From assembly GCA_965224465.1 (NCBI GenBank), contig OZ245049.1:1770001-1802000 (forward strand): 32,000 nt of DNA, in the 5' to 3' direction. This DNA comes from Flavobacteriaceae bacterium (lineage in GTDB: Bacteria > Bacteroidota > Bacteroidia > Flavobacteriales > Flavobacteriaceae). The notes beneath the pieces are model-generated. The model ran no database searches. It was not told the DNA's origin and was given only the letters and a program-made list of their open reading frames with translations. The translations under genes and the position numbers were made by a program. How positions within the stretch are numbered: the stretch's first letter is position 1; every line of letters starts with the position of its first letter. Shown one piece after another: positions 3,708 to 32,000 of the stretch.

Positions 3708-3722
3708 TAGCAAAGTAACAGA

Positions 3723-6680: not shown

Positions 6681-6837
6681 ATACCAAATACATTTCCACG
6701 TGACAGTTTAGAAATGGAATTATTTTTTATTTTAGCTAGGCGATAAATGGGTAAATAGCCTTAACTATCGTTCTATTTTCAACAACGATAGAACGTCAAA
6801 TGAACTATTTATATCGGTTATTTTACATTGTAATTGG
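6681..6837 (+). mobile_element. MITE copy A (about 157 bp, full length, GG subfamily)
   Basis: ATACCAAATACATTTCC...TTTTACATTGTAATTGG. It has imperfect terminal inverted repeats of about 28 nt and an internal hairpin CGTTCTAT/ATAGAACG. It aligns with 8 other copies in the window. Confidence 0.8.
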
Positions 6838-6886
6838 CATTACCCTCTCATTTAGAATTATATTTGGTAGAAAACGAGCTGCTAAA

Positions 6887-8134
6887 TTAGTTTTTCTTCA
6901 AAGTGCCCTTTAAGAATAAACCCTTCGTAATATCCTTTATTTGTTGTTTTGCATAACGTGTCATCTCTACATCATTTGACGCAAAACGATCGATATATTT
7001 TTTATATAAATCCAATGCAACATTCTTATCTTTATAATATGCCTCTGCTGTCACAGCCCATTGGAACAAGCCTTTATAAAACCTCCGACCACTATGATAA
7101 GATTTCTTATAATAGCGAATTGCCTCTTTAAAGTTCTTTTCTTCTTGAAAAATAGTTGCATATAAAAACTGAGGAGCACTAAAATCCGGATCAGCACCAA
7201 GCAAAGACATCATCAACAATATCTTAGCAGACTTTAGCTCCTTTTTCTTATAGTATACATTTGCCAATTTATAAGCATATTCCATACTACTCCTATCCAT
7301 TTTAACCGCTTTAGCATAATATACTTGAGCACTATCCAATTGTTCCATTTTCTCAAAACAAGCCCCTTTCAAACTATTAATAGCAGCATTTGAGAACCCA
7401 AGACTGTCCATTTTCTGAATCAAAACCAGACTTTGCTTATAATTTTTATACTTATACAAAAACAAAGCCTTTAGTTGCAGGAAATTCAAATGCTCCCCGT
7501 CCAACAACAGCCCTTTGTTAATAAATAATTGAGTGGAATCCTTAAAGCGTAGCGACTTGTAAAACTTAGCCAACTCAAAAATACTAGACAAGTGTGCTGT
7601 GTCTTTTTTATAAGCATCTAAAAACAACTCTCCTGACTCAAAAAAACGACCTTTCTTTTTTAATATTTTCCCCAATTGATAGCAATAAAACGGATTTGTA
7701 CTATCTTTTTGGATCAAAAACGCATACATTTTCACCGCTTCCTTTGTTTTACGCGTGCTTTTATACAGGCGCGCTAATTGACTTGCAACTACTAAATTTG
7801 AAGAATCTTGTACAAAAATTTTTTCGTACAAGTGAATGGCTTTTTTTGCCAGTCCTGCTGCATGGTAACTTCTCGCTAACTTTAAACTTAAGACGTCTGA
7901 CGGAGTCAATTCAAACGCCTTTTTATAATTATAAATTGCTTTATTATAATGCCCAATTTGATGATAAATAACGCCCATTTCTGTAAAATCACTGACTGTT
8001 AAGACCTTCTTTACATCCAACTCCTTCAAGCGTAATTGGTAATCTCCTTGTACAAAATATTCTTGTTGTATTGCCCCCTGTGATAGCATACTTGTAACAT
8101 ACAAAAACACAACAAACCGACTTATTATTTTCAT
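6887..8134 (-). CDS. Secreted TPR-repeat protein
   Basis: N-terminal signal peptide followed by repeated 34-aa A/Y/L-rich TPR-like units (AIxxYKKA, AxxLYEK and similar). Confidence 0.7.
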   Translation of the reverse strand: MKIISRFVVFLYVTSMLSQGAIQQEYFVQGDYQLRLKELDVKKVLTVSDFTEMGVIYHQIGHYNKAIYNYKKAFELTPSDVLSLKLARSYHAAGLAKKAIHLYEKIFVQDSSNLVVASQLARLYKSTRKTKEAVKMYAFLIQKDSTNPFYCYQLGKILKKKGRFFESGELFLDAYKKDTAHLSSIFELAKFYKSLRFKDSTQLFINKGLLLDGEHLNFLQLKALFLYKYKNYKQSLVLIQKMDSLGFSNAAINSLKGACFEKMEQLDSAQVYYAKAVKMDRSSMEYAYKLANVYYKKKELKSAKILLMMSLLGADPDFSAPQFLYATIFQEEKNFKEAIRYYKKSYHSGRRFYKGLFQWAVTAEAYYKDKNVALDLYKKYIDRFASNDVEMTRYAKQQIKDITKGLFLKGTLKKN

Positions 8135-8179
8135 ACTATTATTTTATTATTGAACCTTCTAACAAATCAACTACACCTT

Positions 8180-9706
8180 TTAAACCACCTTAAACACAAT
8201 AGGAAGAGAATATTTCACCCCTACAGGTTTCCCCTGTTGTAATCCAGGAATCATTTTTGGAAGTAAATTTATAACTCTTATTGCTTCTTCTTCAAGTAGC
8301 TTATGTGGTCCTCTTGACCTCACCGTATCCACATTCCCCTCTTTATCAATAGAAAACATGACGAAAATCTTTTTAATACCAGGTTGCAATGCTAATTCTT
8401 TACTTAAACTTACATTAAAGAATTCTTTTACATGTGCATCTATTTTTTGTGACAAACAACGTTTCTGATCTTCGACATCTTCACATCCAGGAAACACTGG
8501 CACTTGTTCTATCACAGAAAACGCCAAATAATCTTCTGTTTGATTGGCTATTTTATCTCTTTCATTTTTTCTACTATCATCCGCAGCACTTCGATTGTTT
8601 GTCATATACTGCTTATCAACATAAAAATGCCACACACGTTTTCCTTCAGGGCTCATTTTTAATACTACTTCACTTCCATTTGTCATAGAACCCTCCCCTT
8701 TCCATTTTTTTATAAACTTAATTTCCGAAGCAGACATGTCTTCTGCACGTATAAGCGCTCCTTTAAAATCAGCTCCAATAAAAATATGGAAATCACCACT
8801 GGAAATTAGTTTCCCTTGATTTTCTTTGGCTTGATTTACTATATTTTGAACAGCTACTTCTTTATCACAAGAAACATAGAGCAACATGCTAAACATAACA
8901 GGAATCAGTATTAAGTATTTTAATTGTTTCATCTTTCTAGATTTGATTTTTGTAATCATTATAATGCGTTTTTTTAATAATGAATGTTTGCAAAACGAAC
9001 TTACAAACGAACTATTTTCTACGTTAAATGTATGGGCTAATAAATTGTTAAAATAATGTTGCTTGTTTGTGTGTTTTAATACTTCTGCATCTGATAAGTA
9101 CTCATGCACTTCGGTAATTCTATGTTGAAAAGCATAGGTTAATGGATTGAACCACATACAAATTTTCAAAAGCTCAAACACCAATAAATCCAACGTATGC
9201 AACTGTTTACTATGAACTAATTCGTGCTGAACAACTTGTAAATAATTATCATCAGCTAATTTTTGATGAATAAAAATATATCTAAAAAATGAAAAAGCAG
9301 TTTCATTTTCTAGCAACAATACAAGGCTATGGCTTTTCTTTTTAACAACCTTACTAGATTGTAACAAACTCAGGATATGATATAGTTTTATAGCAAATAT
9401 AAAACCGAACACCCCAACACCTATATAAAAAAAGTAGCCCAAATAATTTACAGATTGATATACCTCTAAGGTCTCTATCACCGCTTGTGGATTCAGAACT
9501 ACCTTCGGTAATTGATACACAACATCGTTGGGTACTATGTATTGTAAACTGGTGAATTGAACAAACGGAATCAAAAAAGAAACGATAGGAGTTCCTAACA
9601 GATACCATCGGTTGTATTTAAAAAAAGTTTCCTTTTGCAGAAATAAATCATAAATCCCCAAAAACAATGCTTGAATAAAAACGACTTGTACTATATAATT
9701 TATCAT
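8180..9706 (-). CDS. BlaR1-like M56 family membrane metallopeptidase with C-terminal TonB_C domain
   Basis: N-terminal TM helices, HExxH site (VQHELVHSKQLH), and a C-terminal VPVFPGC...KC...GKPVGVKYSLPIVFKV TonB_C-like domain. It lies downstream of a BlaI-type repressor gene. Confidence 0.8.
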   Translation of the reverse strand: MINYIVQVVFIQALFLGIYDLFLQKETFFKYNRWYLLGTPIVSFLIPFVQFTSLQYIVPNDVVYQLPKVVLNPQAVIETLEVYQSVNYLGYFFYIGVGVFGFIFAIKLYHILSLLQSSKVVKKKSHSLVLLLENETAFSFFRYIFIHQKLADDNYLQVVQHELVHSKQLHTLDLLVFELLKICMWFNPLTYAFQHRITEVHEYLSDAEVLKHTNKQHYFNNLLAHTFNVENSSFVSSFCKHSLLKKRIIMITKIKSRKMKQLKYLILIPVMFSMLLYVSCDKEVAVQNIVNQAKENQGKLISSGDFHIFIGADFKGALIRAEDMSASEIKFIKKWKGEGSMTNGSEVVLKMSPEGKRVWHFYVDKQYMTNNRSAADDSRKNERDKIANQTEDYLAFSVIEQVPVFPGCEDVEDQKRCLSQKIDAHVKEFFNVSLSKELALQPGIKKIFVMFSIDKEGNVDTVRSRGPHKLLEEEAIRVINLLPKMIPGLQQGKPVGVKYSLPIVFKVV

Positions 9707-9736
9707 ACCTTTTATTTTTTTAACAGGGAATCATTA

Positions 9737-9873
9737 ATACCAGTATATTTAATAGAATCATTTTGTATTAATTCTAGGTAAAAACCTAAGGATAGCCTTA
9801 CCTATCGTTCTATTTTTAGTAACTAAAGAATCAAAATGTCTAATTTACGGCGGTCATTTGGATACGTTTTTTG
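9737..9873 (+). mobile_element. MITE copy B (degenerate), between the blaI-like gene and the M56 sensor gene
   Basis: The central block GATAGCCTTACCTATCGTTCTATTTTT is nearly identical to copy A. The ends (ATACCAG... and ...TTTTTTGG) are eroded. Confidence 0.55.
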
Positions 9874-9906
9874 GAGAGTAAAACAAATGCGCCAACAAAA
9901 AGGCAT

Positions 9907-10928: not shown

Positions 10929-10974
10929 GTAGTATATTTAGTTGAAACATATAGACCTTGCATAAAGCAGTTAC

Positions 10975-11117
10975 AGCAACAACGTTTCCCAGTGACGGCT
11001 TTGAAATGGAATTATATTTTGTTTTAGCTACACAGGAATTCTAAAGATAGCCTTAGTTATCGTTCTATTTATATCAACAAAAGAAGAAAAACCCATCATT
11101 TTACATCCGTTAATTGG
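10975..11117 (+). mobile_element. MITE copy C (diverged)
   Basis: CAACAACGTTTCCCAGTGACGG...GATAGCCTTAGTTATCGTTCTATTT...ATTTTACATCCGTTAATTGG. Confidence 0.7.
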
Positions 11118-11420
11118 AGCTGTTTATGAAACCCATTCAAAACTGGATACAGAAACCAGAATTTAAGAATTACGAAAAATATTTCCCTTACAATTCCTGA
11201 AAATATTTCCGGTAATAATATTCATTTTTGGAGCGTCAAGCAATGGAATAGAATTAAGAAAATTAGTAGGATTAGATCATTATAAAAGATGCCAGTAGAC
11301 TTAACAGCCTTGCCCCTAATACACAAAGTATACTTTTAAAAAATAGTTTTTAATGTAGAAATAGCATTTTGGAGAATTAACCCCTCCATAAAGGAGATCA
11401 AAAACCTGATTTTTACGCAT

Positions 11421-11524
11421 AAAAAAAGCGTCCCGGTTTTTCGGGAAGCTTTCCATTGGTTTTTTCAAACCGTGACATTTTTCAATGTCAAACAACACAA
11501 CTAAACCAAGAAACTAATCTTGGG
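11421..11524 (-). ncRNA. Candidate orphan small RNA (about 100 nt)
   Basis: Minus-strand -7 box TATATTTG (11536-11529) with a TTG 22 nt upstream. Three hairpins follow: CCAAGA/TCTTGG 11506-11523, TGACAT/ATGTCA 11473-11490, and GGTTT/AAACC. A GC-rich hairpin plus a T7 run (11452-11421) ends it. No credible ORF. Confidence 0.35.
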
Positions 11525-11722
11525 AAGGCAAATATACGCCTATTTCTGAAACCACCAGCAATAATTAACTTTTATTTTTAAAAACAAACAGCTACAAGAT
11601 GCAATATCTTAGGTCGCACACCCCTATTACGGAATAAAGCTATCAAAAAAAAACAATTTTCAGAAATACGTTTAATCTCAAATAGAAATCCAATTTTAAA
11701 GTACATTTTATGATATAGATTG

Positions 11723-11765: not shown

Positions 11766-13469
11766 ATGCAGTTATCAGCATTAGAAATTGTACGAAGAGA
11801 GTCGCTACAGAAACTACGTGACTTGGGCATAAATCCATTTCCAGCAGCAGAATTTAAAACCACCGCAACTATAGCTGCGATAAAGAAGGATTTTGATAAG
11901 TTTGAGGGAAAGAAGGTCATATTAGCTGGACGTTTGATGAGTCGACGTATTATGGGAAAAGCTTCCTTTGCTGAATTAAAAGATGCTTCTGGTCGTATGC
12001 AAATTTACATCAACCGAGATGAAATTGCTCCAGAAGAGGATAAAACGATGTACAATACCGTATTCAAAAAATTATTGGATATGGGAGATATAATAGGAAT
12101 CGAAGGAGAAGTTTTCAAGACCAATGTAGGAGAATCATCTGTTCGAGTAAAAAAATTAACGTTATTAACCAAATCATTAAGACCACTCCCTGTAGTTAAA
12201 ACAGATGCAGATGGTAACGTACACGATGCCTTTTCTGATCCAGAAACTCGCTACCGACAACGCTATGTAGATTTGATTGTAAATGACCACGTTAAGGAAA
12301 CCTTTATCAAACGTTCTAAAATCACGAGTTCTATGCGTGAATTTTTCAACAAAAGAGGATATTTGGAAGTAGAAACACCTATTTTACAACCTATCCCTGG
12401 AGGTGCCGCAGCACGTCCGTTTATCACCCACCACAATTCGTTAAACATGCCATTGTATTTGAGAATAGCCAATGAATTGTATTTAAAAAGATTGATCGTT
12501 GGAGGTTTTGATGCCGTTTTTGAGTTTGCAAAAGACTTTAGAAACGAAGGTATGGATCGCACCCATAATCCAGAATTTACAGTAATGGAATTGTATGTAG
12601 CCTATAAGGATTACAACTGGATGATGAACATGACAGAAGAACTGTTAGAAAAAATATGCATTGACTGTAATGACACTTCTGAAGTAATGATAGGAGAACA
12701 TAAAGTGAGTTTTAAAGCACCTTATGCACGTATTCCTATCTTACAAGCCATTAAAGATCATACAGGATATGACGTTGCAGGATTGGATGAATTCCAATTG
12801 CGAGATATTTGCAGAAAACTAAATATGAACGTGGATGAAACCATGGGCGTAGGAAAATTAATTGATGAATTGTTTGGTGAAAACTGTGAACGTCATTATA
12901 TCCAACCTACTTTTATTACAGATTACCCAAAAGAAATGAGTCCTTTAACCAAGGAGCACCGAGACAACCCCGCTTTGACGGAGCGTTTTGAGCTAATGGT
13001 AAATGGTAAAGAATTGGCAAATGCTTATTCTGAATTGAACGACCCTATAGACCAACGTGAACGTTTTGAAGCACAAATGTCCTTATCAGAAAAAGGAGAT
13101 GACGAAGCTATGTTTATTGACCAAGACTTTATCCGTGCTTTAGAATACGGAATGCCTCCAACCTCTGGTATCGGAATTGGAATAGATCGCTTGGTAATGT
13201 TTATGACCAACAATGCCTCCATTCAAGAAGTATTGTTCTTCCCTCAAATGAAACCAGAAGTACTAGCAACACAAACTGTCGAACTTTCAGACGAAGGTAA
13301 AGCCGTTTTAAAATTAGTAGAAAAAGCGGAAAAAATAGTGTTGGCAGAATTAAAAATAGCTGCTGATTTATCCAATAAAAAATGGGATAAAACCATCAAA
13401 GAATTGACGAAGAACAAGGTTGTTAAAGTAGAAAAAAACAACGAAGAATTGTTTGTAACTTTGGCTTAA
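11766..13469 (+). CDS. lysS: Lysine--tRNA ligase (class II) with about 65-aa C-terminal extension
   Basis: OB-fold N-terminus. Class II motifs include FRNEGMD and GIGIGIDRLVMF, with ELNDP and ERFE nearby. An extra tail follows FFPQMKPE. Confidence 0.95.
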   Translation: MQLSALEIVRRESLQKLRDLGINPFPAAEFKTTATIAAIKKDFDKFEGKKVILAGRLMSRRIMGKASFAELKDASGRMQIYINRDEIAPEEDKTMYNTVFKKLLDMGDIIGIEGEVFKTNVGESSVRVKKLTLLTKSLRPLPVVKTDADGNVHDAFSDPETRYRQRYVDLIVNDHVKETFIKRSKITSSMREFFNKRGYLEVETPILQPIPGGAAARPFITHHNSLNMPLYLRIANELYLKRLIVGGFDAVFEFAKDFRNEGMDRTHNPEFTVMELYVAYKDYNWMMNMTEELLEKICIDCNDTSEVMIGEHKVSFKAPYARIPILQAIKDHTGYDVAGLDEFQLRDICRKLNMNVDETMGVGKLIDELFGENCERHYIQPTFITDYPKEMSPLTKEHRDNPALTERFELMVNGKELANAYSELNDPIDQRERFEAQMSLSEKGDDEAMFIDQDFIRALEYGMPPTSGIGIGIDRLVMFMTNNASIQEVLFFPQMKPEVLATQTVELSDEGKAVLKLVEKAEKIVLAELKIAADLSNKKWDKTIKELTKNKVVKVEKNNEELFVTLA

Positions 13470-13499: not shown

Positions 13500-13549
13500 A
13501 AGACTTAAAGCAGGTACTCTTATTCCTACCTGCTTTAAGTCTTTTTTTT
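13500..13549 (+). terminator. Strong intrinsic terminator after lysS
   Basis: 17-bp stem AAGACTTAAAGCAGGTA/TACCTGCTTTAAGTCTT followed by a T8 run. Confidence 0.85.
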
Positions 13550-13760
13550 GCAACTAATTTCTATGTTTTTTCGTTTCTAAATAAGTTCAATGCGTTTTTT
13601 TAAACAAAAGGAGACCTTTTAGATAATACAGATAGTGAAGCTAAATGCAGATTAGGGGTACTGAATGGGAAAAACAAGCTAGAAAGCGCTTTGCCTACTT
13701 TATAGTATTTGACAAAAAAGAAGTTACAGGTTCTTATATACATGCCTTTTTTTCAATGTT

Positions 13761-14714
13761 GGCTAACTCGTCTTTTGTCATGTTTTCTGTTTGAATAAAG
13801 TTAATACTTTTTTTATTCAGACAGCGTTGAGTTTACAGTCCCTTAACCTACTATGTAAACTATTGATGTGCTGAATATGATAAGTCCCTTTGACCCGTTG
13901 GTTTTTACTACTGTTTAAAACATGATGCTCTAAATGAAAATCCTTACTAAACCCAGTAAAATTACGGTGTCCATCTGAACAAAATACGGTTCTATTATCT
14001 ACCATGCTTCCGATAGTGTTTTTTATATTACCCTTGGTAATCCTGGACATATTTGTAAATTTAGACACGCATAGTTCTGCTCTATCTTGGCTTGTTAATA
14101 CCGTTGCGTATTCTTTTGTTATACCTGCTCCCTTCTTTTCGGATCTACTTCTGGGAGGTCTATATACACACTTTTTACCTTTTTGACTGTGTAAATAAAA
14201 GGCCTCATCACTCTCGGTGATTCCTTTGAAATGACCTGTGGTTTCTTGGAACATAGCAGACAAAAAACGATGACGCCATCTAAATGCCGTCCCTGGATCT
14301 ATGGAAAGATCCTTTCCTGTTTTAACCAAACTTAAATTCAATTCAAGTGTTTTTAAAAAGGCAGGTATGCGTTGCTTTTTGTGTATCCCAGCTAGCCAAC
14401 TGCCGGTAAATTCAGTAAAAGTACGTTTGCAATCTTTACATTTATAACGCCTGCTGTTTTTATCTACACCTGCTTTTATATAGTGATAGCCATTGCTAAA
14501 AGGGCATTCACCCCTTCTGTAATCTAAAGCATTCCCTCTTATTTTAATAATGTCTACATAACTTCCTGATTTGCAAAGAGACTGAAATTATTTAAGCAAA
14601 ATATCCTGCTTAGTTACATCTAGACAGTCAAAATATTTTAAAATACCTGAACTACCCATCATGATTCTGTTTTTCAGCAAATTACGAGATAAAACGCTAT
14701 TTACAAGTTGAGCC
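13761..14714 (-). mobile_element. Decayed IS1595-family (ISPna2-group-like) insertion sequence
   Basis: Imperfect terminal inverted repeats GGCTAACTCGT (13761) and GGCTCAACTTGT (reverse complement, ending at 14714). The internal transposase reading frame is interrupted. No matching target duplication was seen. Confidence 0.65.
13817..14662 (-). pseudogene. IS1595-family transposase, disrupted
   Basis: The frame from ATG 14662 has an in-frame TAA at 14590-14588 (codon 25). It then continues through a Zn-ribbon (CPF...YKCKDCKRTF), TAFRWRHRFL, ITESDEAFY and HIQHINSLHSRL. It ends early at KLNAV, where family members continue as FNGVATKYL. Confidence 0.7.
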
Positions 14715-14939
14715 AAATTTAACCAAAATCAAATAATGAGGTTGCGTGTAGCTTCTGGTTTGCCAAATATTCAAAAAGGTGATGTTAGTAATTTTAATTT
14801 TTTAATACCACAAAAAGAAGAACAACAAAAAACAGCCACTTTTCTATCATCCATAGATACATCTATAGACATTATGACTAATCAAATTGATGATTCAGTA
14901 ATGTTTAAAAAAGGGTTGTTGCAAAAAATGTTTGTGTAA
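14715..14939 (+). pseudogene. hsdS: Type I R-M specificity subunit (HsdS) C-terminal fragment
   Basis: ...GLPNIQKGDVSNFNFLIPQKEEQQKTATFLSSID...KKGLLQKMFV is the conserved end of an HsdS target-recognition domain plus the C-terminal helix. Homology starts exactly at the IS boundary. Confidence 0.75.
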
Positions 14940-14976
14940 ATTGTCATTCATAATTAAAGATCTATAATTGGTTATA

Positions 14977-15114
14977 TTGCGCCTATATTTTTAATACAAA
15001 GGTCATTTGCGCCTAATAATTTTGCTTTACGCCTGTATTTTATGTATTTTGCGCTTGTATTTTTTAAATTATGTCAAATACCGCTCATTTTTTATTTTTT
15101 GCGCCTACTTTTAA
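14977..15114 (+). repeat. Five direct copies of the TTGCGCCTnTATTTT box
   Basis: Boxes start at 14977, 15007, 15027, 15049 and 15099, giving spacings of 30, 20, 22 and 50 nt. The last box lies inside the annotated 5' end of the fic ORF. Confidence 0.7.
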
Positions 15115-16636
15115 TGGTTTGGTTTTACCTATAAAAGGGTATATGGTAGGTTATACCGCTATTATACATAAGTTACGACTTGCTGTACCTATAAGCAAGC
15201 CTATTGCTATAATTTCATTGAATACAAAACGCCTTAAAAATGATGATTTTTTAGTATTGCCAAAAAGTTATCTAGTAAAAGATGTCGTACAAAATTCAGA
15301 GATTGAATCCTTATATAATCATTTAGTATTTGCATTAAAATATGAAGGTGTTCATTTATTAGTATTTAGCGCTATTACAAAATATTATTCAAAAGATGCA
15401 TTAGTACAATTATTAAGCATAGAACCAACAGGGCAATACTCAAGAAGAATGTGGTTTTTAATAGAATGGCTTTTACAAAAAGAACTAAAAGCGATTCCAA
15501 ATCTTGCTAATAAAAAAAGTTATGTTTCCGTAATAGATACAAAATTGCAATATGCAGTTGCAGGTATAAAGTCATCTCGACATCTGGTCATAAATAATCT
15601 ACCAGGAACAGTCCATTTTTGTCCATTAATCAAAAAGACAGAAAAACTCGAGAATTATATTTTACAAAACTTAAAAAGTAAAAGGATAGAGACGCTAAAA
15701 GGGTTTAAAAAAGACTTATTACAGCGTACAGCAGCCTATTTATTATTAAAAGATTCAAAGGCATCATTTACCATAGAAGGCGAAAGTCCTAAGAGTAAAC
15801 GAACGGCACGTTGGGGAAAAATAATTGGGCAAGCAGGAGCAAAAAGGCTGAACCAAGAAGAATTGATACGGCTACAACAAGAGCTTATAGAAAATTCACG
15901 TTTTGTAGCAATGGGGTTTCGTAAAAAAGGTGGTTTTGTAGGTGAGCATAATCGTACCACTGGCGAACCTATACCAGAGCATATATCTGCAAAATGGCAA
16001 GATATAACACGATTAACAGAAGGTTTAATAGATACCAATACAATTTTAGCCAACAGTGATATAGATGCTGTATTAGCCGCAACAGTCATTGCTTTTGGTT
16101 TTGTTTTTATTCATCCGTTTGAAGATGGTAATGGACGTATTCATCGGTATTTGATTCACCATATTTTAGCAGAAAAAAAGTTTACCCAGCAAGGGCTTAT
16201 TTTTCCTGTTTCTTCTTCTATTTTAGACCATATTGTAGATTATAGAAATGTATTGGAACACTATTCTCACAGTATATTAGATTTTATAGATTGGAAAGAA
16301 ACGAAAGGGCACAATATTGACGTATTAAACAATACGATAGATTATTACCGCTATTTTGACGCTACCAAACAAGCAGAGTTTTTGTATGATTGTGTAAATG
16401 ATACTATAGACAACATCATTCCTCAAGAAATAAATTACCTTCAAAAATATGACGAATTTAAAAATTATGTAGAGGAAGAGTTTGAGATGCCAGATAGTAT
16501 AGTTGCTTTATTAGTTCGATTTTTAGAACAAAATGATAGTAAACTATCAAAAAGAGCAAAAGAAAAAGAATTTTCAATGTTAAATAATGATGAGGTTAAT
16601 CGAATTGAAGAAACGTATCATCAAATTTTCAATTAA
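15071..16636 (+). CDS. Fic family protein (probable AMPylase) with intramolecular inhibitory motif
   Basis: Canonical Fic motif HPFEDGNGRIHR (16112-16147). A SxxxEG inhibitory-helix motif SFTIEG (15764-15781) lies N-terminal to it. 521 aa, though the start could be the internal M24. Confidence 0.85.
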   Translation: MSNTAHFLFFAPTFNGLVLPIKGYMVGYTAIIHKLRLAVPISKPIAIISLNTKRLKNDDFLVLPKSYLVKDVVQNSEIESLYNHLVFALKYEGVHLLVFSAITKYYSKDALVQLLSIEPTGQYSRRMWFLIEWLLQKELKAIPNLANKKSYVSVIDTKLQYAVAGIKSSRHLVINNLPGTVHFCPLIKKTEKLENYILQNLKSKRIETLKGFKKDLLQRTAAYLLLKDSKASFTIEGESPKSKRTARWGKIIGQAGAKRLNQEELIRLQQELIENSRFVAMGFRKKGGFVGEHNRTTGEPIPEHISAKWQDITRLTEGLIDTNTILANSDIDAVLAATVIAFGFVFIHPFEDGNGRIHRYLIHHILAEKKFTQQGLIFPVSSSILDHIVDYRNVLEHYSHSILDFIDWKETKGHNIDVLNNTIDYYRYFDATKQAEFLYDCVNDTIDNIIPQEINYLQKYDEFKNYVEEEFEMPDSIVALLVRFLEQNDSKLSKRAKEKEFSMLNNDEVNRIEETYHQIFN

Positions 16637-16639
16637 AAT

Positions 16640-16950
16640 AACTACACAACCCGAACAAATATTAGAAAATAATTTGCTTTCTCAATTACAAAAATTGGGT
16701 TACAAAAGTGTTGTCATAAAAGATGAAACTGATTTATTGGAAAATCTAAAAAGTCAATTAGAAATTCATAATAAGATAACGCTCTCCTCGCAGGAGTTTA
16801 AGTAGGTATTAAACTATATCAACAAAGGCAATATCTTTGAGCTCGCCAAAATATTAAGAGATCGTGTTCCTTTTATCAATGATAAAGGCGAACACAAAAC
16901 CGTAGAACTCATCAACCAAGTACATTAGTGTAAAAACGAATTTCAGGTTA
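16640..16950 (+). pseudogene. hsdR: Type I restriction enzyme R subunit (HsdR) N-terminal fragment
   Basis: ...EQILENNLLSQLQKLGYKSVVIKDETDLLENLKSQLEIHNKITLSSQEFK*VLNYINKGNIFELAKILRDRVPF...INQVH*CKNEFQVTQQ. There are two in-frame TAG codons (16803-16805 and 16926-16928, the latter where family members have W). It is truncated at MITE copy D. Confidence 0.75.
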
Positions 16951-17100
16951 CCCAACAACATTTCCAAGAGACCGTTTAGAAATGTAATTATATTTTTTAG
17001 CTAAGCGAAAAATGGATGGATAGCCTTGCTATTGTTCTGTTTTTCAAAAATGCTAGCACGTAAAATAAACTATTTATATCGGCTGTTTTGGATTGTAATT
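16949..17100 (+). mobile_element. MITE copy D (GT subfamily), abutting the hsdR fragment
   Basis: TACCCAACAACATTTCCAAGAGACCG...AAATAAACTATTTATATCGGCTGTTTTGGATTGTAATT. Confidence 0.8.
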
Positions 17101-17215
17101 TATTAGGCCATGCCTCTCCGAAAACCACAGAGTTTTACACCAAGACCATCGAAATTAACAATAAAAAAAATATTGGATCGCTTAAAAAGCGAAAAAAATT
17201 GAATACTTTTAACAA
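17100..17215 (+). pseudogene. Tyrosine recombinase C-terminal remnant (copy 1)
   Basis: It reads LLGHASPKTTEFYTKTIEINNKKNIGSLKK, which contains the LLGHxSxxTTxxYT motif with the catalytic Tyr. No upstream recombinase body is present, because the MITE end is immediately 5'. Confidence 0.6.
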
Positions 17216-17325
17216 AAAACCAATACATACCCGAAACTATTATAGACACAACGGAAATAACGTCAAGTTTTGGAAGTTTATTGATGATATATGGGTGTTA
17301 CAAAATATTAGAAAACAAACATAAT

Positions 17326-18513
17326 ATGGCTTGGATTGAAATAAAAGGCTATCCTAACACAAGAATGAAAATCAAACTCCCTGAAGTAGTGGGAATTGAG
17401 GCAATTGAATGTATTACTAACTTAGATAAAGGTTCTGACAATAAAGGTGTTGGAGGAGTTTTAAAAGGTTTTGTTTACGGGAAAGAATACGAATTCAAAA
17501 TAAGCAAATATTACAAAGACCGATTACTTTCTGACAAAATAAAAAAAGAAATAGTTTGGGAATATGAATATGTTAATGATGACGGAGAAGTTATTAATAT
17601 TATTCAAAAAGAATACTCTGGAGATAAATTTCAACTAAAAATAGAAAACTTAAAAATGCTTGGTAAAAATATTTGCATTTATTGTCATTTGAAAAATCAA
17701 GAATCAGGTGCTTCAATAAGTAAATTTTGCCATAATAGATTTAGATTTTTTGACAGGAAAGCAATAGAAAATGAACTAAATAAAAGAAGAAGTAATCCTG
17801 AATTAGCAAATCAAAGTAGAACACCAACTTGTGGAATGGCTTCCATATTCTATATTTTAGCAAAAAAAGATTTTGATAACTATCAAAACTTCATACTTGA
17901 TTTACATCAAACCGGTATTGCTAAATGTAACTCATATGAAGTTGATGTTTCTAAATGTGATCATTTATTAGAAATAAATCCCGTTTTAGACATTTTATAC
18001 CCAGCATTGTATGGTAAAAAAATGCCATATATTGATTGGATTCCTTTTTCTTGTATTAGAGACTTAGAAAATAATTTACCTATAAGTTATAATGGAAAAA
18101 TGAGCCAATCTTCATTAGATGAGTTTTCTGGAGCTACATTACCCCACGAGATAGAAAAATTAATGAAAAAGCTTTTAGGTTTCAAAAAAATTATAAATGA
18201 CACTAATCTAGTTTTCAATAAAGATAGCCAAGCTTTTGGTGAGATATCTGCTAGAGAATTAAAGAAATTACAAGATTTATATTTAGACGGATATAATATA
18301 TGCTTATTTATTAACACAAATATGATAAGCAATAAAGAGTCTGGAATTTTGTCGACAATTGAACATTGGGTTGTTTTTGAGGGAATTATTGGTGGAACAA
18401 TTAGTTGGGATGAATATGATTTTAAAGTATTTACTTGGGGTGCTATAGAAGATGTTATTGTTAATCCTGAATCATTCAGGTCAAATTATTATGGTTATGT
18501 TGCAGGTAAATAA
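17326..18513 (+). CDS. Papain-fold (C39-like) Cys/His peptidase-domain protein, candidate effector/toxin
   Basis: The start is set at ATG 17326 because homology with the cassette-2 leader ends exactly there. There is no signal peptide. Q-x5-TCGMAS has the candidate nucleophile Cys at 17830-17832, and IEHWVVFEG has the His at 18364-18366, followed by D/E residues. The N-terminal ~140 aa form a separate domain predicted here to be beta-rich. Confidence 0.6.
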   Translation: MAWIEIKGYPNTRMKIKLPEVVGIEAIECITNLDKGSDNKGVGGVLKGFVYGKEYEFKISKYYKDRLLSDKIKKEIVWEYEYVNDDGEVINIIQKEYSGDKFQLKIENLKMLGKNICIYCHLKNQESGASISKFCHNRFRFFDRKAIENELNKRRSNPELANQSRTPTCGMASIFYILAKKDFDNYQNFILDLHQTGIAKCNSYEVDVSKCDHLLEINPVLDILYPALYGKKMPYIDWIPFSCIRDLENNLPISYNGKMSQSSLDEFSGATLPHEIEKLMKKLLGFKKIINDTNLVFNKDSQAFGEISARELKKLQDLYLDGYNICLFINTNMISNKESGILSTIEHWVVFEGIIGGTISWDEYDFKVFTWGAIEDVIVNPESFRSNYYGYVAGK

Positions 18514-18922
18514 AAAACTTATTTATATTTTTTTAATCATACAATTATTAAGTTGTAATAAAAAAAATAAGAATTGTGATTTACAAGATGCTATTCTTCA
18601 AAGAATAATTTTAAAAAATTTTAAAAAATCTAGTTTAAAAACCCTTTCTATAAATAAAGAAAAACAAGATTATCTTTTAAAAACAGACCCTAATAGTTCT
18701 TATGCTTACATTCAACTAACTCCTCTTATTTTTAGAGAATTGAAAAAAGGGAAAACTTTGTTTACTATTAATGACTCATTGAATTATACTATTTCTGAGA
18801 TAAAAACAGACTCTATTATGAGACAAACTATGGTAAATGAATTTAAAGATTGTATTTTGGTGTCCTATAAAATTAATGATTCTTTAATTTATCATCATCA
18901 GAAAATAATTATAAATCGATAA
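18497..18922 (+). CDS. Small lipoprotein, candidate cognate immunity protein
   Basis: MLQVNKKLIYIFLIIQLLSCNKK has a signal peptide with lipobox LLSC. The start overlaps the upstream gene's stop (18511-18513) by 17 nt. The 142 aa are very AT-rich. Confidence 0.55.
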   Translation: MLQVNKKLIYIFLIIQLLSCNKKNKNCDLQDAILQRIILKNFKKSSLKTLSINKEKQDYLLKTDPNSSYAYIQLTPLIFRELKKGKTLFTINDSLNYTISEIKTDSIMRQTMVNEFKDCILVSYKINDSLIYHHQKIIINR

Positions 18923-18933
18923 AAACGTTTTGT

Positions 18934-19203
18934 AATCGAGTAGACGGCTCCAACAAACATAGCTGGAAGGCGCCTCTCACACCACTGTACATACGAGAAC
19001 TTCGCTCATTCATTTAATTACAAGTATAAAAACACTTCTAATTCTCATGAACCTATACGGAGGTGTAAAAAATTAAAGTCTTTATATTATTGACATCCCA
19101 TTTCTTATTGATTTTTACCGAAAAATCATGAGGTAACGTAAAAAAACAAGGAGACAACAGTTTTAACAAAAAGTATTTCGAATTGATTTTTTCGAATTCA
19201 ATA
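18934..19203 (+). repeat. Conserved inter-cassette 3' module, copy 1
   Basis: Aligns with 21749-21814 plus 22117-22357, for example AATCGAGTAGAC..CTCCAACAAACATAGCTGG.AGGCGCCTCTCACACCACTGTACATACGAGA and ACTTCGCTCATTCATTTAATTA... It starts 11 nt after the cassette stop codon. No ORF. Confidence 0.8.
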
Positions 19204-19357
19204 ACACCAAATACATTTCCAAGTGACGGATTAGAAATGTAATTATATTTTTTTAGCTAAGCGAAAAATGGATAGATAGCCATCGCTATCGTTCTATTTT
19301 TTAACAACGCTAGCACGTAAAATAAACTATTTATATCTGTTGTTTTGGATTGTAATT
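19204..19357 (+). mobile_element. MITE copy E (GT subfamily)
   Basis: ACACCAAATACATTTCCAAGTGACGGATTAGAAATGTAATTATA...GATAGCCATCGCTATCGTTCTA...TGTTTTGGATTGTAATT. Confidence 0.85.
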
Positions 19358-19446
19358 TATTAGGCCATGTCTCTCCAAATACAACTGAGGTTTACACGAG
19401 GACCATTGTCATAAACAAAAAGAATATAACACTCTTGAAAATTTAA
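19357..19446 (+). pseudogene. Tyrosine recombinase C-terminal remnant (copy 2)
   Basis: It reads LLGHVSPNTTEVYTRTIVINKKNITLLKI*. It has the same junction with the MITE end as copy 1. Confidence 0.6.
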
Positions 19447-19584
19447 AAAAATTAGATATCTTTAACAAGAAAATAACTAGCCCCTCATCCAATTAATAGG
19501 GATAACGGATTAGCGTCAACTTTAAGACTGGTGTTTTCGATATATGGGAGTTGTTGTAATACATTACAGAAAACAATATACTAA

Positions 19585-21738: not shown

Positions 21739-21748
21739 TAACGCACTA

Positions 21749-22357
21749 CAATCGAGTAGACAACTCCAACAAACATAGCTGGCAGGCGCCTCTCACACCA
21801 CTGTACATACGAGAGGAGAGTTTTATTTTAAAAAAACCAGTGGAGCTGATAACGTATAGCTACTTGTAAAAAGGTATTGAAAAATAATTTTAGTAGTATT
21901 GATAATGTTACATCGGAGGATGTCTTTTATGCAGTATATATGTTCAAAAGCTGCGAGAATAGGAACGACCTTAGGAGGGACGCGCAGTTTTGGATATGGT
22001 TTTTAAGAAGGCTTTTTTGCCGCCTTAAAAAATACCTCATAAAAGTCTCCTTTTTTGGTTCGTTTTTTGGAGAAGCAAAAAATGAACATACAGGATAAAA
22101 TGACGTCAATGGTAGAACTTCGCTCATTCATTTAATTATAAGTATAAAAACACTTCTAATTCTCATGAACCTATACGGAGGTATAAAAAATTAAAGTCTT
22201 TCTATTATTGACATCCAATTTCTTATTGATTTTTACCGAAAACCCATGAGGTAACGTAAAAATAAGGAGTCAACAGTTTTAACAAAAAGCACCTGATTTT
22301 TTACCGACAAAACGGTTAATAAAAAGTATTTAGAATTGATTTTGTCGAATTCGTGTA
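21749..22357 (+). repeat. Conserved inter-cassette 3' module, copy 2 (carries 302-bp and 37-bp insertions)
   Basis: Same sequence as 18934-19203 but interrupted at 21815-22116 and 22290-22326. It starts 11 nt after the cassette stop codon. Confidence 0.8.
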
Positions 22358-22513
22358 ACACCAAATACATTTCCAAGTGACGGATTAGAAATGTAATTAT
22401 ATTTTTTAGCTAAGCGAAAAATGGATGGATAGCCATCGCTATCGTTCTATTTTTTTAACAACGCTCACACGTAAAATAAACTATTTATACCGGCTGTTTT
22501 GGATTGTAATTGG
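22358..22513 (+). mobile_element. MITE copy F (GT subfamily)
   Basis: ACACCAAATACATTTCCAAGTGACGGATTAGAAATGTAATTATA...GGCTGTTTTGGATTGTAATTGG. Confidence 0.85.
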
Positions 22514-22674
22514 GACAAGAAGCTAAACCAAAGAAAAAGCATAAAAACCAACCAGCTCAGAGACTTTACAAATAAACAATTCCTCAAGAAATATTTTAGA
22601 GAGAAAAGACATACACGCGTCTAAATGGCTCGATTATTGAAGTGTGAGCAGGATATAATGAATTTATTTTTATC

Positions 22675-24007: not shown

Positions 24008-24060
24008 TGCCTGTTTTTTAAAAAGAGCTAAAAACACCGAGCCTACATTCTTCCACAAAA

Positions 24061-24163
24061 CAATTACAATCCAAAATAAACTATCTAAATAGATTATTTT
24101 ACGTTCTAGCGTTGTTAAAAAATAATTCCATTTCTAAACCATCACTTGGAAATGTATTTGATA
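24061..24163 (-). mobile_element. MITE copy G (103 bp, internally deleted form, inverted orientation)
   Basis: The reverse complement reads CAAATACATTTCCAAGTGATGGTTTAGAAATGGAATTATTTTTTAACAACGCTAGAACGTAAAATAA...TTTTGGATTGTAATTG. It lacks the ~49-nt central block TAGCTA..GATAGCC..GTTCTATTTT. Confidence 0.8.
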
Positions 24164-24292
24164 TAATTAGTGCTTTGCGAGCAATTCAAAAAGACCTACA
24201 ATTACCACGTCCCTTTAACAAATAATTAAGAGTCTACACGCACACTTTTTTTTAAATTGCATCTATAAAAATCTGATATCAAATAAAGCAAT

Positions 24293-26785
24293 ATGAAGTT
24301 CACCCTAATCACCAAAATTCTAGCATTTATGCTCATTTTTGGAATCACCAGTAACATTGATGCGCAACGCAAAAAAAAGCGTAAAAAAAAATCAAAAACA
24401 GAAGTCGCTGCCCCCAAACCTAAAAAAGGAGCTATACAAGCTTACAGTAAGGTAATCACAAAAAAAACAATCACGGATGAAGGCTTGTTTAAAGTTCATA
24501 GGAATGACGAAAAATATCTTTTCGAGATTCCTGATAGTTTATTAGAACGAGAAATGTTAATGGTTACTCGTATTGCAAAAACTGCTTCAGGAATTGGCTT
24601 TGGAGGAGGAAAAACCAATACACAAGTATTAAGATGGCAAAAAAAAGGAAAAAAAATTGTATTACGAGTAGTTTCGTATGCGGTGGTAGCCAATGATTCT
24701 TTACCTGTACACGAAGCCGTTGTAAATTCAAATTTTGAAGCTATACTTTACACCTTTCCAATCAAAGCATTTGGAAAAGATTCTACTTCTACAGTAATTG
24801 ACGTTACCGATTTATTTTCTAAAGACGTCAAAGCCATTGGTTTCCCTGTAAGACAACGTAAACACTACAAAATATCTTCTTTAAACAGTCAAAACTCGTT
24901 TATCGAAAGCATAAAAAGTTACCCCTTAAATATAGAAACACGTCATATAAAAACCTATAACGCATCCGCTGCACCATCCAATAGAAGCACAGGAAGCATC
25001 TCTGTAGAAATGAGTAACTCTATGATTTTGCTGCCAAAAACACCTATGAAACGTCGATTTTTTGACGAGCGTGTGGGCTGGTTTACTTCAAGACAAACAG
25101 ATTATGGGCAGGAAGCACATAAAAGTAAATCAATAAAGTTCTTAGACCGATGGAATTTAGAAGTTAAAGATGAAGATCTTGAAAAATTCAAAAGAGGAGA
25201 ACTGGTAGTTCCTAAAAAACAAATTGTTTATTATATAGACAGAGCTACACCAACAAAATGGGTGAAATACATTAAACAAGGCATCGAAGATTGGCAAGTA
25301 GCCTTTGAAGCAGCAGGTTTTAAAGAAGCCATTATTGCTAAAACACCTCCTACAAAAGAAGAAGATCCAGATTGGAGTCCAGAGGATGTTCGCTATTCCG
25401 TAGTCCGTTATTTGGCATCTCCTATTCCAAATGCCAATGGACCTCATGTAAGTGACCCTAGATCGGGAGAAATTTTAGAATCTGACATCAACTGGTATCA
25501 CAATGTGATGACTTTATTACACGACTGGTATTTTATACAAACAGCTGCTATAAATCCAGACGCTCGCGGAAATGAATTTAAAGACGAAGTAATGGGAAGG
25601 TTAATTCGTTTTGTATCATCACACGAAGTAGGACATACCTTAGGTTTACCTCATAATATGGGAAGTAGCTGTGCGTATACCGCAGAGAATTTACGTAGCG
25701 CTGCATTTACCAAAGAATTTGGAACAGCACCTTCTATTATGGACTATGCGCGTTTCAACTATATAGCGCAACCAGAAGACAAAGGAGTTGCCATGATGCC
25801 AGAAGTAGGAATTTATGACAAATACGCCATCAGTTGGGGATACAGACCCATTCCTAACACGACAGAATCTGAAGAAAAACCAACTTTAGACGCATGGATT
25901 TTAAAACATGCAGGAGATCCTTTATATCGTTTTGGACAACAACAATCTGGAGAAGTAATAGATCCGAGCTCTCAAACAGAAGATTTGGGATCAAACGCAA
26001 TCATCTCTAGCCAATATGGAATTGCCAATTTAAAACGTATTGTACCTAAGTTGGAAGAATGGACTTCAGAAAAAGGAGAGAATTATGACAATTTAAAAAC
26101 CATGTACGGGCAAGTAATAATTCAATTTGGTCGATATATGGGACATGTTACGGCTAATATTGGAGGTGTTTATAAACATACAAAAACCAGTGACCAAGCA
26201 GGAGCTGTATACACCTATGTATCTAAAGACCATCAAAAAAATTGTTTGAAATTTATTCAGTCAGAATTGTTCAAAACACCACTTTGGCTATTGGATGACA
26301 CTATTTTTAATAAAATAGAATATTCAGGAGCCATTGAACGTATTCGTAAATTACAAGTAAAATCGTTGCATGCTATTTTAAGTATTACACGCATGGCGCG
26401 CTTGATAGAAAACGAAGCTAAAAACGGTTCAAATGCATATACTTTAGCTGAAATGATGAGCGACTTACGAAAAGGGATTTGGAAAGAAATATACACTGGA
26501 AAAACATCCGATGTATACCGTCGTAACTTACAACGTGCTTATGTGGAAGAATTAGGTCGTTTAATGACTTCCAAAAGTGTCCAAAAAGGTTCTAATTACC
26601 GAGGATACCGAAAAACCACGGCAGTAAACACCAATCAATCTGATATTAAAGCAATGGTTAGAGGCGAATTAAAACGCTTGCAGCGCGATGTTAAAAAAGT
26701 GATGTATACTGGAAATACAACTACTAAATATCATTTACAAGACATAGAAGAACGTATTGATTTGATTTTACACCCGATTAAATAA
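24293..26785 (+). CDS. Secreted zinc-dependent metalloprotease (met-zincin type)
   Basis: 830 aa with a signal peptide, a lysine-rich linker and the HEVGHTLGLPHN zinc site. Confidence 0.85.
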   Translation: MKFTLITKILAFMLIFGITSNIDAQRKKKRKKKSKTEVAAPKPKKGAIQAYSKVITKKTITDEGLFKVHRNDEKYLFEIPDSLLEREMLMVTRIAKTASGIGFGGGKTNTQVLRWQKKGKKIVLRVVSYAVVANDSLPVHEAVVNSNFEAILYTFPIKAFGKDSTSTVIDVTDLFSKDVKAIGFPVRQRKHYKISSLNSQNSFIESIKSYPLNIETRHIKTYNASAAPSNRSTGSISVEMSNSMILLPKTPMKRRFFDERVGWFTSRQTDYGQEAHKSKSIKFLDRWNLEVKDEDLEKFKRGELVVPKKQIVYYIDRATPTKWVKYIKQGIEDWQVAFEAAGFKEAIIAKTPPTKEEDPDWSPEDVRYSVVRYLASPIPNANGPHVSDPRSGEILESDINWYHNVMTLLHDWYFIQTAAINPDARGNEFKDEVMGRLIRFVSSHEVGHTLGLPHNMGSSCAYTAENLRSAAFTKEFGTAPSIMDYARFNYIAQPEDKGVAMMPEVGIYDKYAISWGYRPIPNTTESEEKPTLDAWILKHAGDPLYRFGQQQSGEVIDPSSQTEDLGSNAIISSQYGIANLKRIVPKLEEWTSEKGENYDNLKTMYGQVIIQFGRYMGHVTANIGGVYKHTKTSDQAGAVYTYVSKDHQKNCLKFIQSELFKTPLWLLDDTIFNKIEYSGAIERIRKLQVKSLHAILSITRMARLIENEAKNGSNAYTLAEMMSDLRKGIWKEIYTGKTSDVYRRNLQRAYVEELGRLMTSKSVQKGSNYRGYRKTTAVNTNQSDIKAMVRGELKRLQRDVKKVMYTGNTTTKYHLQDIEERIDLILHPIK

Positions 26786-26880: not shown

Positions 26881-26928
26881 AAAACAAATGGGTCTTAAAA
26901 TTATCCATTCCAACCCCTTATATTACTA

Positions 26929-27082
26929 ATACCAACATTTTCAAGTCACGGTTTAGAAATGGAATTATTTTATGTTTTAGCTAGGCGGAAAATGGATGGA
27001 TAGCCTTATTGTTCTATTTTTTAACAACGCTAGAACGTAAAATAAACTATTTGTATTGGTCATTTTGAATTGTAATTGGTAT
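26929..27082 (+). mobile_element. MITE copy H (GG subfamily), flanked by TA on both sides
   Basis: ATACCAACATTTTCAAGTCACGG...GTTCTATTTTTTAACAACGCTAGAAC...CATTTTGAATTGTAATTGGTAT. Confidence 0.8.
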
Positions 27083-27113
27083 CATTAGTTAGCGTGGTAC
27101 AAAACAGGATTTA

Positions 27114-27160
27114 AAGAAAAACAGCGCATTCCTTTTAGCAAGGAATGCGCTGTTTTTTTT
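27114..27160. terminator. Bidirectional intrinsic terminator between convergent genes
   Basis: AAAAACAGCGCATTCC-N8-GGAATGCGCTGTTTTT, with an A-run on one side and a T-run on the other. Confidence 0.85.
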
Positions 27161-27321
27161 ATAGAATAATGGTGCTTTAAAATCGAAATTATAAAAGCCT
27201 TGACATCAACATTAAATGATCGATATAAACGACATCTACTGTTTAAAAAACATGCCAATACACGTCCGACCCTAAACATAAGAATCTCTGTCCGTATAGC
27301 AAAGCACACTTTCCAATGTAC

Positions 27322-28923: not shown

Positions 28924-28959
28924 GTGATATATTATGGTTTCAACTACTATTTAGGGAAT

Positions 28960-31113: not shown

Positions 31114-31490
31114 CGCTGCAAAAATACGTTAAAAACCTTTATAACTGCTCTTTAGGTGAACTTTTTGATTGTATTTTGTTAATCTACTGGGCGTCAAACT
31201 GATTCTGAGCCCTTGACAAAATTTGAACACTCAAAGTTTAGTATTCAAAACGCATCTATAGCAAAGAGCTATATATAAACAAGCCGACACAAATCACACT
31301 TGCAACATTTTACAGTACTTCTTTTTAGTTTATATCATCCCTAAAAGATAAAACAAAATATCCTATCCGCTGCTTTTAGCGCATATCCCAAAACCATGTT
31401 AAAATCAATTAATTACAAACAACCAATTAAACCTTTTGGGTATTTATAGGTCAAAGAAGCAAAACCAATATAAATTTAAAACATAAAAAA

Positions 31491-31958
31491 ATGAAAAAAT
31501 TAATCGGAACCATCGTACTTGTATTTGCTATCACTGTTCATGTAAATGCACAAGAAGGAATGATGAGAAAAAAAATGAACCATCCTAATTTTACGCCAGA
31601 ACAACAAGCGACACTACATACTAAAAGAATGACATTGGCTTTGGATTTAACAACCAGTCAACAGCGTGAAATACAAAAAATTAATTTAAAAACAGCTGCA
31701 GACAGAAAAGTAATGAGCGCTAATTCTAAAAGTACCAGAGGGAGTCAAGCTCAACTTACTGATACTCAAAAATACGAGAAAGCCATCGCGAGATTAGATA
31801 AAAGAATTGCTCATAAAGCACAATTAAAAACAATTTTGAGTAAAGATCAATACGAAAAATGGTCAACATTCCAAGGTCAAAAAATGAGAAAACACGGAAA
31901 AAAACATGGAAGAAAAGGATCAAATCGCATGAAGGGTATGCACAAAATGAATCGCTAA
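31491..31958 (+). CDS. Periplasmic Spy/CpxP-like (LTxxQ motif) small basic protein
   Basis: Signal peptide ending VNAQ. It has LTTSQQ and LSKDQ helix motifs and a K/R/H-rich tail. Confidence 0.55.
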   Translation: MKKLIGTIVLVFAITVHVNAQEGMMRKKMNHPNFTPEQQATLHTKRMTLALDLTTSQQREIQKINLKTAADRKVMSANSKSTRGSQAQLTDTQKYEKAIARLDKRIAHKAQLKTILSKDQYEKWSTFQGQKMRKHGKKHGRKGSNRMKGMHKMNR

Positions 31959-31965
31959 CAATGAA

Positions 31966-32000
31966 CACCAATTACAATCCAAAATGACTGATTTAATAGT
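31966..32000 (-). mobile_element. MITE copy I (right end only, cut by window edge, inverted orientation)
   Basis: CACCAATTACAATCCAAAATGAC is the reverse complement of the canonical right end ...CATTTTGGATTGTAATTGGTG. Confidence 0.65.

Follow-up and report, generated by a model that had tools for sequence, protein, structure and literature searches.

A family of short hairpin elements, in all likelihood MITEs with a probable TWA target duplication, in an uncultured marine clade of Flavobacteriaceae

In this article we describe a repeat family found in a 32-kb stretch of a Flavobacteriaceae genome (contig OZ245049.1; the whole stretch is called the window below), and it was confirmed that this repeat is a non-coding mobile element present in the window in nine copies, A to I. 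The copies share one long hairpin, intact copies are flanked by direct repeats, orthologous sites are empty in related genomes, and deletion derivatives keep the ends of the element. In all likelihood the family consists of miniature inverted-repeat transposable elements (MITEs), i.e. short non-coding DNA transposons whose movement would depend on a DDE transposase supplied in trans from another locus. The host group is an uncultured marine clade of Flavobacteriaceae. A first-pass annotation, made from the letters of the window, had described a Correia-like MITE; this interpretation was right in kind and wrong in detail, and the repeats form a new family of a known kind of element. The copies are the following (covariance matches refer to the model R1, see below):

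Copy A: 6682..6839, plus strand; full length, 158 nt, termini TACC...GGCA; covariance match 6679-6841, 160 bits; 47 nt 3' of the stop codon of a TPR gene, site empty in relatives.
Copy B: 9737..9873, plus strand; degenerate, core 9753-9842, in the blaI-blaR1 spacer; about 17 nt of the left terminal repeat missing; covariance match to the internal part only (9753-9842), 33 bits, E 2e-4.
Copy C: 10974..11123, plus strand; full length, diverged (52-73% identity to the other copies), right terminus degenerate; covariance match 10971-11133, 135 bits.
Copy D: 16951..17100, plus strand; GAAATGT subfamily, without the last ~4 nt of the right terminus; covariance match 16947-17106, 169 bits.
Copy E: 19205..19357, plus strand; GAAATGT subfamily, left flank as in F and right flank as in D; covariance match 19202-19363, 181 bits.
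Copy F: 22359..22515, plus strand; GAAATGT subfamily, termini CACC...GGGA, flanks TAA and CAA, at the right island edge; covariance match 22356-22517, 175 bits; 94% identity to E.
Copy G: 24058..24163, minus strand; inverted, internal deletion of ~50 nt with both arms kept, ~106 nt; covariance match 24056-24166 (minus strand), 84 bits, E 3e-14; inverted-repeat pairs I1-I10.
Copy H: 26930..27081, plus strand; full length, termini TACC...GGTA, flanks TAA and TCA; covariance match 26924-27083, 157 bits; between the stop codon of a Met-zincin gene and a terminator hairpin at ~27110-27166, site empty in the related loci L002 and L006.
Copy I: 31964..32000, minus strand; the right arm alone, truncated where the window ends, 6 nt past the stop codon of a DUF4890-like gene.

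The family was recovered by several kinds of search. The covariance model R1 was built from seven copies, and with filters off it gave six full-length matches of 135-181 bits in the window (A, C, D, E, F and H), the E-values of the window copies reaching about 1e-33; an nhmmer search agreed with the model (E 4e-44 for copy A, 7e-9 for copy B), and a repeat search of the window recovered the family as well, together with the repeats of the island flanks described below. The two-anchor pattern TTAGAAATGKAATTAT-N85-115-ATTGTAATT matched A, D, E, F and H and nothing in 100 shuffles, and the 16-mer anchor alone, with at most two mismatches, was met at 7 sites of the window against 0.36 expected. 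Copy B reached a local alignment score of 94 versus a null of 34 +/- 6. Copy I gave 20.8 bits (E 0.24, model positions 127-164) in a covariance search with default filters and was absent from the list obtained with filters off; it is better supported by an inverted match of 36 nt (83%) to the right end of H (pair I11). Altogether the copies sum to ~1.2 kb, which is 3.8% of the window. By the covariance model, nhmmer and the repeat search all nine copies of the first-pass annotation were located where it had placed them or a few bases off. The terminal sequences which it quoted are those of copies E and F, its division into two subfamilies was borne out (GAAATGT in D, E and F, GAAATGG in A, C, G and H), and the copies are indeed intergenic or adjoin gene fragments, as D does between the fragments of hsdR and a tyrosine recombinase. 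Other spacers were searched for further decayed copies; the one signal obtained, at 3588-3725, was rejected, as it is doubtful and the spacer is equally long in relatives.

Full copies have 150-160 nt and ~30% G+C, and the size range across the copies (150-183 nt) lies inside the MITE range of 50-1000 bp. The element has no coding capacity: the longest stop-free stretch has 32-41 aa and is not conserved among the copies. The termini of the element are 5'-YACCAAWTACATTTCCAAGTGAC...TTTTGGATTGTAATTGGTR-3', and in L001, one of four copies outside the window (L001, L005, L054 and L070, see below), the terminal repeat (YACCAAWTACA / TGTAWTTGGTR) is without a mismatch for 12 nt. Complementarity of the left and the right half extends over nearly the full length, with GATAGC/GCTATC as apical stem, thus a single strand can fold into one long imperfect hairpin. 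The first-pass annotation had noticed inverted repeats of about 28 nt; the terminal repeats are there, but their extent was underestimated, since the whole element pairs end to end.

Nine copies were used to score the hairpin, which has 54 pairs in six helices. In this alignment 87.6% of the cells were paired, against 43-47% when the partners were slid by 1-3 columns, and 11 pairs had changed on both sides, compared to 3.7 +/- 1.7 in shuffles, none of the 500 reaching 11. These two-sided changes occur in the internal helices and in the terminal stem alike, and the terminal stem (helix 1) is 85% paired across the 9 copies. In the most diverged copy, L054 (~60% identity to the rest), both termini have changed in concert: on the left CCAATTACA became CCAATTAAA (ACA to AAA) and on the right TGTAATTGG became TTTAATTGG (TGT to TTT). 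Additionally, there are length variants. In L070 the apical loop is longer by 22 nt; the copy in L005 has 62-66 nt and is made up of both terminal arms with a few bases between them. Loss of the middle with the ends retained, as in G and L005, is to be expected where the function resides in the ends, as it does in a transposon. A scan for sigma-70 promoters and terminators, which is uninformative for Bacteroidota, gave nothing but a weak signal at the apical stem, which was present on either strand.

The mobility of the element was examined in relatives of the window genome, which are uncultured marine or subseafloor Flavobacteriaceae: the NORP metagenome-assembled genomes (MAGs) NVSY01, NVSD01 and NVRM01, JAESRX01, and JGI metagenome contigs. 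Over shared genes they have ~80% nucleotide identity to the window with the same gene order. No copy was present in the syntenic loci of five related genomes (L002-L004 and L006-L011, about 150 kb), therefore the sites of A, B, C, H and I are empty there. The blaI-blaR1 spacer, where copy B is located, has 200 nt in the window and 47-57 nt in the relatives, a difference close to the length of one element, and in the DUF456-lysS spacer copy C lies inside an extra stretch of ~310 nt which is absent from L006 and L002.

The repeat is not confined to this locus, since copies were found in other genomes at unrelated loci. In the MAG NORP150 the copy L001 stands 11 nt past the stop codon of a gene of 1008 aa, and the copy L005 stands 15 nt past a Met-zincin stop codon, where the L002 sequence can be aligned right through the site and lacks the element; two long JGI contigs carry L054 and L070. 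As the flanks of A, B, C, G, H and I are also unrelated to each other, the description of the family as a dispersed element holds. These outside copies were reached in different ways. The two-anchor scan of genome contigs gave a single match (NORP150), the genome of the window being outside that collection, and a metagenome scan with the internal pattern had zero matches. Scans with the 19-nt left terminus CAATTACATTTCCAAGTGA gave 106 matches in metagenomes and 11 in viral contigs, almost all of them coding, with L070 as the sole true match; L054 was fetched through a chance in-gene match and the diverged copy happened to be nearby. The 19-nt terminus is the reverse complement of the codons of the KMSKSLGNVI region in class I aminoacyl-tRNA synthetase genes, and dozens of the metagenome matches L012-L117 were rejected as false, mostly in this KMSKS region, which calls for caution in any scan with this terminus. 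At 5840-5870 of L015 (minus strand as read) a right-like and a left terminus are abutted across TAA, AATTGGTA-TAA-TACCAATTACATTTCCAAGTGA; as a candidate copy these abutted termini (AATTGGTA-TAA-TACCAATT) were judged to be chance or a very diverged relic, and the junction could be a coincidence, two decayed copies or the relic of an end-to-end junction.

In order to define the target site, the termini were taken as 5'-YACC...GGTR-3' and the three bases outside them were compared in the seven intact copies (left / right):

Copy A: TTA (6679-6681) / TTA (6840-6842)
L070: TTA / TTA
L001: TAA / TAA
L005: TAA / TAA
L054: TAA / TAA
Copy F: TAA / CAA
Copy H: TAA / TCA

Direct TWA repeats are perfect in five of the seven copies, and F and H have one mismatch each. 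A left TAA facing a right TTA, which would be expected if these bases were an extension of the inverted repeat, was never observed. The duplication of 5'-TWA-3' is the signature of PIF/Harbinger elements and Tourist MITEs, a group which is related to the bacterial IS5 family (PMC4482050, PMC2213677). We prefer a 3-bp TWA duplication and hold it to be about twice as probable as a TA duplication. Among IS5-family elements, the subgroups IS1031 and IS427 also give duplications of TNA type with 2-4 bp.

Most likely the element inserts at TWA (TAA or TTA) and duplicates these 3 bp in the style of the IS5/PIF-Harbinger (Tourist-MITE) transposons. AT-rich stretches after stop codons and upstream of terminators would be preferred and also tolerated as targets, and a TWA target would explain why many copies stand a few bases past TAA stop codons. 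The family probably spread in the lineage of the window genome after its split from the sequenced relatives and decayed afterwards. Later on, homologous recombination and duplication between copies probably remodelled an island in the window, cutting the hsdR and integrase genes and duplicating units of flank, element and flank. The identity of 79-94% among the window copies suggests that the family is old. L001 resembles each of them to much the same degree (82-85%), and no other copy is as good a palindrome, 47 of its 54 pairs being Watson-Crick pairs. This suggests an old burst whose master was similar to L001 and which is now in decay, B and C being degenerate. We infer the transposase family, the mobilisation in trans and the recombination history from these patterns.

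There are other ways to read the same observations. The first-pass annotation, which correctly saw TA on both sides of copy H, had proposed an IS630/mariner-like TA target, so that the element would be a MITE of the IS630/Tc1-mariner type running from CCAA to TTGG, inserting at TA and duplicating it. In H, L001, L005 and L054 both CCAA and TTGG are indeed bordered directly by TA, and TA duplications occur in many bacterial MITEs of similar length (Correia, RUP, ERIC). We consider this reading unlikely, however, because the dinucleotides are TA/CA in A, CA/GA in F and CA/TG in L070; the last two are reverse complements of each other, therefore both belong to the terminal repeat. Furthermore the conserved outer T-W-A would need a target preference, and its middle base is repeated directly, not inverted, in all five clean cases. 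TWA, one step farther out, fits more copies, thus the TA target is the weaker description. The repeats might alternatively have arisen as a local duplication only, one sequence being spread round the locus by segmental duplication. This is true for the trio D, E and F, which form their own subfamily, with 85% identity in the right flank of D and E and 85-96% in a left flank of ~290 nt of E and F; for the family as a whole it is refuted, since the flanks of A, B, C, G, H and I are unrelated, these copies lie among conserved housekeeping genes, and L001, L005, L054 and L070 stand at unrelated loci elsewhere.

The compensatory changes along the whole hairpin, internal helices included, could also belong to a structured RNA module, a small RNA or a 3'-UTR (untranslated region) hairpin which stabilises or processes mRNAs and is kept for its fold, mobility being secondary or extinct. 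In each of the ten copies tested the better fold is that of the forward strand, not of its complement, and when the arms were aligned without regard to structure, 57 transition mismatches were G.T on the forward strand, as against 17 on the other. H, L005 and L054 stand between the stop codon and the terminator of a gene, so they are probably co-transcribed, and A and I are in similar positions. We nevertheless regard such a module as highly improbable. The orientation relative to the neighbouring transcript is mixed (sense in C, H and L054, antisense in A, G, I, L001 and L005), thus a function at the mRNA level does not account for the strand asymmetry, and the wobble bias is largely one property inherited from a single master sequence, the copies being related. 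Moreover it is the interior which the deletion derivatives have lost and the termini which they retain, direct repeats flank the copies, orthologous sites are empty, no Rfam match was obtained, and the copies decay freely, as B and C do. Little credence is given to two further roles beyond selfish DNA, namely that the single-stranded form of one specific strand is functional (as a single-stranded DNA intermediate of transposition or a processed RNA), or that the element is a recombination scaffold which swaps cassettes of a defence island. The end-to-end hairpin with its compensatory interior changes and the G.T excess of one strand could point to the former possibility; the latter comes from the island copies, which separate unrelated genes with the same left and right flanks.

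Several points weigh against a family of MITEs with a TWA target. No autonomous element with matching termini occurs in the window or in the fetched loci, and the identity of the window copies, with its top value between E and F, gives no sign of current activity. A transposase that could mobilise the element had been reported as lacking in the window; a fragment of an IS1595-family transposase is in fact present, but it has no terminal similarity to the element, and to that degree the statement stands. The call of the target duplication draws on only seven intact copies; at ~80% identity the intergenic DNA of the relatives has diverged too far to give an empty site exact to the base, which leaves the length of 3 bp versus 2 bp unproven, and a TA duplication of 2 bp with a strong flanking preference is possible. 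The number of copies is that of the 32-kb window and not of a whole genome, and the view of the first-pass annotation that at this density the element would be a major shaper of the genome is an extrapolation. D, E and F have common flanks and should be attributed to duplication or recombination and not to three insertions, so the nine copies are not nine independent events, and the high local density seen by the first-pass annotation, correct as a count, is inflated as a measure of independent insertions by the segmental duplication of D, E and F. Finally, very few copies turned up when public genomes and metagenomes were scanned with exact patterns, thus the distribution of the family is poorly sampled.

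Among the known elements, Correia elements (NEMIS) of Neisseria have ~155 nt, terminal inverted repeats of ~26 nt, a variant of ~105 nt with internal deletion and no coding capacity. They are dense in intergenic DNA, often co-transcribed with their neighbours, have no transposase of their own, and duplicate TA. The label of a Correia-like MITE thus fits the architecture (size, terminal repeats and the ~105-nt deletion variant G), but does not extend to a TA duplication or to membership by sequence: the host is in another phylum, TWA is the better reading than TA, the arms pair over the whole length and not at the termini only, and the termini differ from the Correia terminus TATAGTGGATTAA..., a comparison made without aligning a reference. 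ERIC (IRU) elements of Enterobacteria are imperfect palindromes of 127 nt over their whole length, situated in transcribed intergenic DNA, with long and short variants produced by internal insertions or deletions, and with reported TA targets. The insertion variant L070 and the deletion variants G and L005 parallel these size variants, whereas sequence and host are unrelated.

The Tourist MITEs of the PIF-Harbinger group, with a 3-bp 5'-TWA-3' target duplication and a preference for AT-rich targets (PMC4482050, PMC2213677), resemble the element in its TAA/TAA or TTA/TTA direct repeats, seen in five of seven intact copies. They differ in being eukaryotic, and an IS5-family transposase with matching ends was not found in the sequences examined; to our knowledge the termini of the element (YACCAA...) are also unlike IS5-family ends. 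In the same phylum, Bacteroidota, the MITEs of Porphyromonas gingivalis (BrickBuilt, MITE239, MITE293 and MITE700) are non-autonomous, and their terminal repeats match those of the IS5-family ISPg elements (PMC4596501). In contrast to the present family they have other terminal repeats (e.g. GAGACCTTCGCA), longer or variable duplications, a minisatellite in BrickBuilt and known parent insertion sequences.

The element has ~155 nt with terminal and direct repeats, and no gene of a Y1 transposase was found in the window, so it does not look like the REP/RAYT systems. REP sequences are clustered palindromes of 20-40 nt without target duplication, which are linked to a RAYT gene (IS200/IS605-like). 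Flavo-1 (RF01705), with which a comparison had been proposed, is likewise a structured non-coding sequence of Flavobacteria, but no copy matches it, and no Rfam family matched any copy at the gathering score or at E <= 10. A weak Flavo-1 match at 24741-24791 (22 bits versus a gathering score of 42) was dismissed, being inside the Met-zincin gene, and weak Rfam matches near 27110-27166 belong to a terminator hairpin.

The window is low-G+C chromosomal DNA with the genes secDF, hpt-adk, obg, the TPR gene, blaR1/blaI-like genes, DUF456, lysS, the Met-zincin gene, mscS and a radical-SAM gene. An inserted island (13500-22600) contains copies D, E and F and is absent from the relatives: the Met-zincin gene comes immediately after lysS in L006, and in L010 and L011 only a short NlpE gene stands between the two. 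We read this insertion as a decayed defence island. Its features are the following:

13817-14341, minus strand: fragment of an IS1595-family transposase.
14736-14939: C-terminal fragment of hsdS.
15071-16636: Fic protein, matching the PADLOC candidate PDC-S24 (2e-180).
~16640-16930: N-terminal fragment of hsdR, left flank of D, ending in TTA.
17101-17190: C-terminal pseudogene fragment of a tyrosine recombinase (int'), adjoining D.
17281-18922: gene A, 24-29% G+C, no family matches.
18910..19199, plus strand: left flank L of E; a second copy of it (21726-22352) precedes F.
19358..19450, plus strand: second C-terminal pseudogene fragment of a tyrosine recombinase (int'), adjoining E.
19585-21738: gene B, 24-29% G+C, no family matches.

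The layout is thus D, int', gene A, L, E, int', gene B, L', F. A comparison ruled out that gene A is a paralogue of gene B; the two are unrelated. The left flanks of E and F have ~290 nt in common with an identity of 85-96% (repeat families D8 with 85%, D4 with 96%, D13 and D10), and the right flanks of D and E have ~70 nt in common (17101-17167 against the flank of E, family D5, 85%). The two recombinase fragments represent the last ~30 codons (LLGHxSPxTTExYT), are 85% identical and start exactly at the truncated right ends of the elements; their translations are LLGHASPKTTEFYT at copy D and LLGHVSPNTTEVYT at copy E. The genes of hsdR and the integrase are cut at the copies, thus the first-pass annotation was correct in speaking of gene-truncation points, and these truncations are most likely products of rearrangement mediated by the element. 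The simplest account would be an insertion in the integrase gene and at other sites, followed by recombination and duplication between the copies.

Some other sequences were observed beside the copies. The left flank of F is interrupted by a non-coding block of ~300 nt (21815-22113) which is absent from the paralogous flank upstream of E, and a block ~85% identical to it stands downstream of the Met-zincin gene in L006 (about 12760-13100) and L007 (about 7020-7360); a 1-nt insertion or deletion breaks its small open reading frame, which speaks rather for an RNA or for a different small mobile block. An 89-nt repeat (18910-18998 and 21726-21814) overlaps the 3' ends of two unrelated genes, has no Rfam match, and its second copy contains the hairpin CCTCTC-N16-GAGAGG. 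Around copy A, at 6384-6886, all five relatives carry an AraC-type gene (HTH_18) between a 158-aa open reading frame and the TPR gene; a remnant of this gene was sought in the spacer round copy A and was not found, copy A being within the shortened spacer. Between the DUF456 gene and lysS, the sequence at 11417-11590 (minus strand) is almost invariant across species which are ~80% identical in their genes, ends in an intrinsic terminator on the minus strand (GCTTCCCGAAAAACCGGGACGC followed by T7) and has no Rfam match; it is a candidate for an unannotated conserved small RNA.

MITEs are poorly catalogued in Bacteroidota outside Porphyromonas, and a family of marine Flavobacteriaceae which combines a Tourist-like TWA target with a whole-length hairpin provides a data point on the spread of IS5-superfamily derivatives. 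It should be emphasized that repeats of this kind fragment assemblies, lengthen 3' UTRs and supply homology for deletions and duplications, and that spurious small open reading frames arise over the copies, such as one of 66 aa over L001. In the defence island the copies mark the breakpoints of the cut hsdR and integrase genes. If the density of the window (3.8%) held throughout the genome, it would be exceptional for a bacterium.

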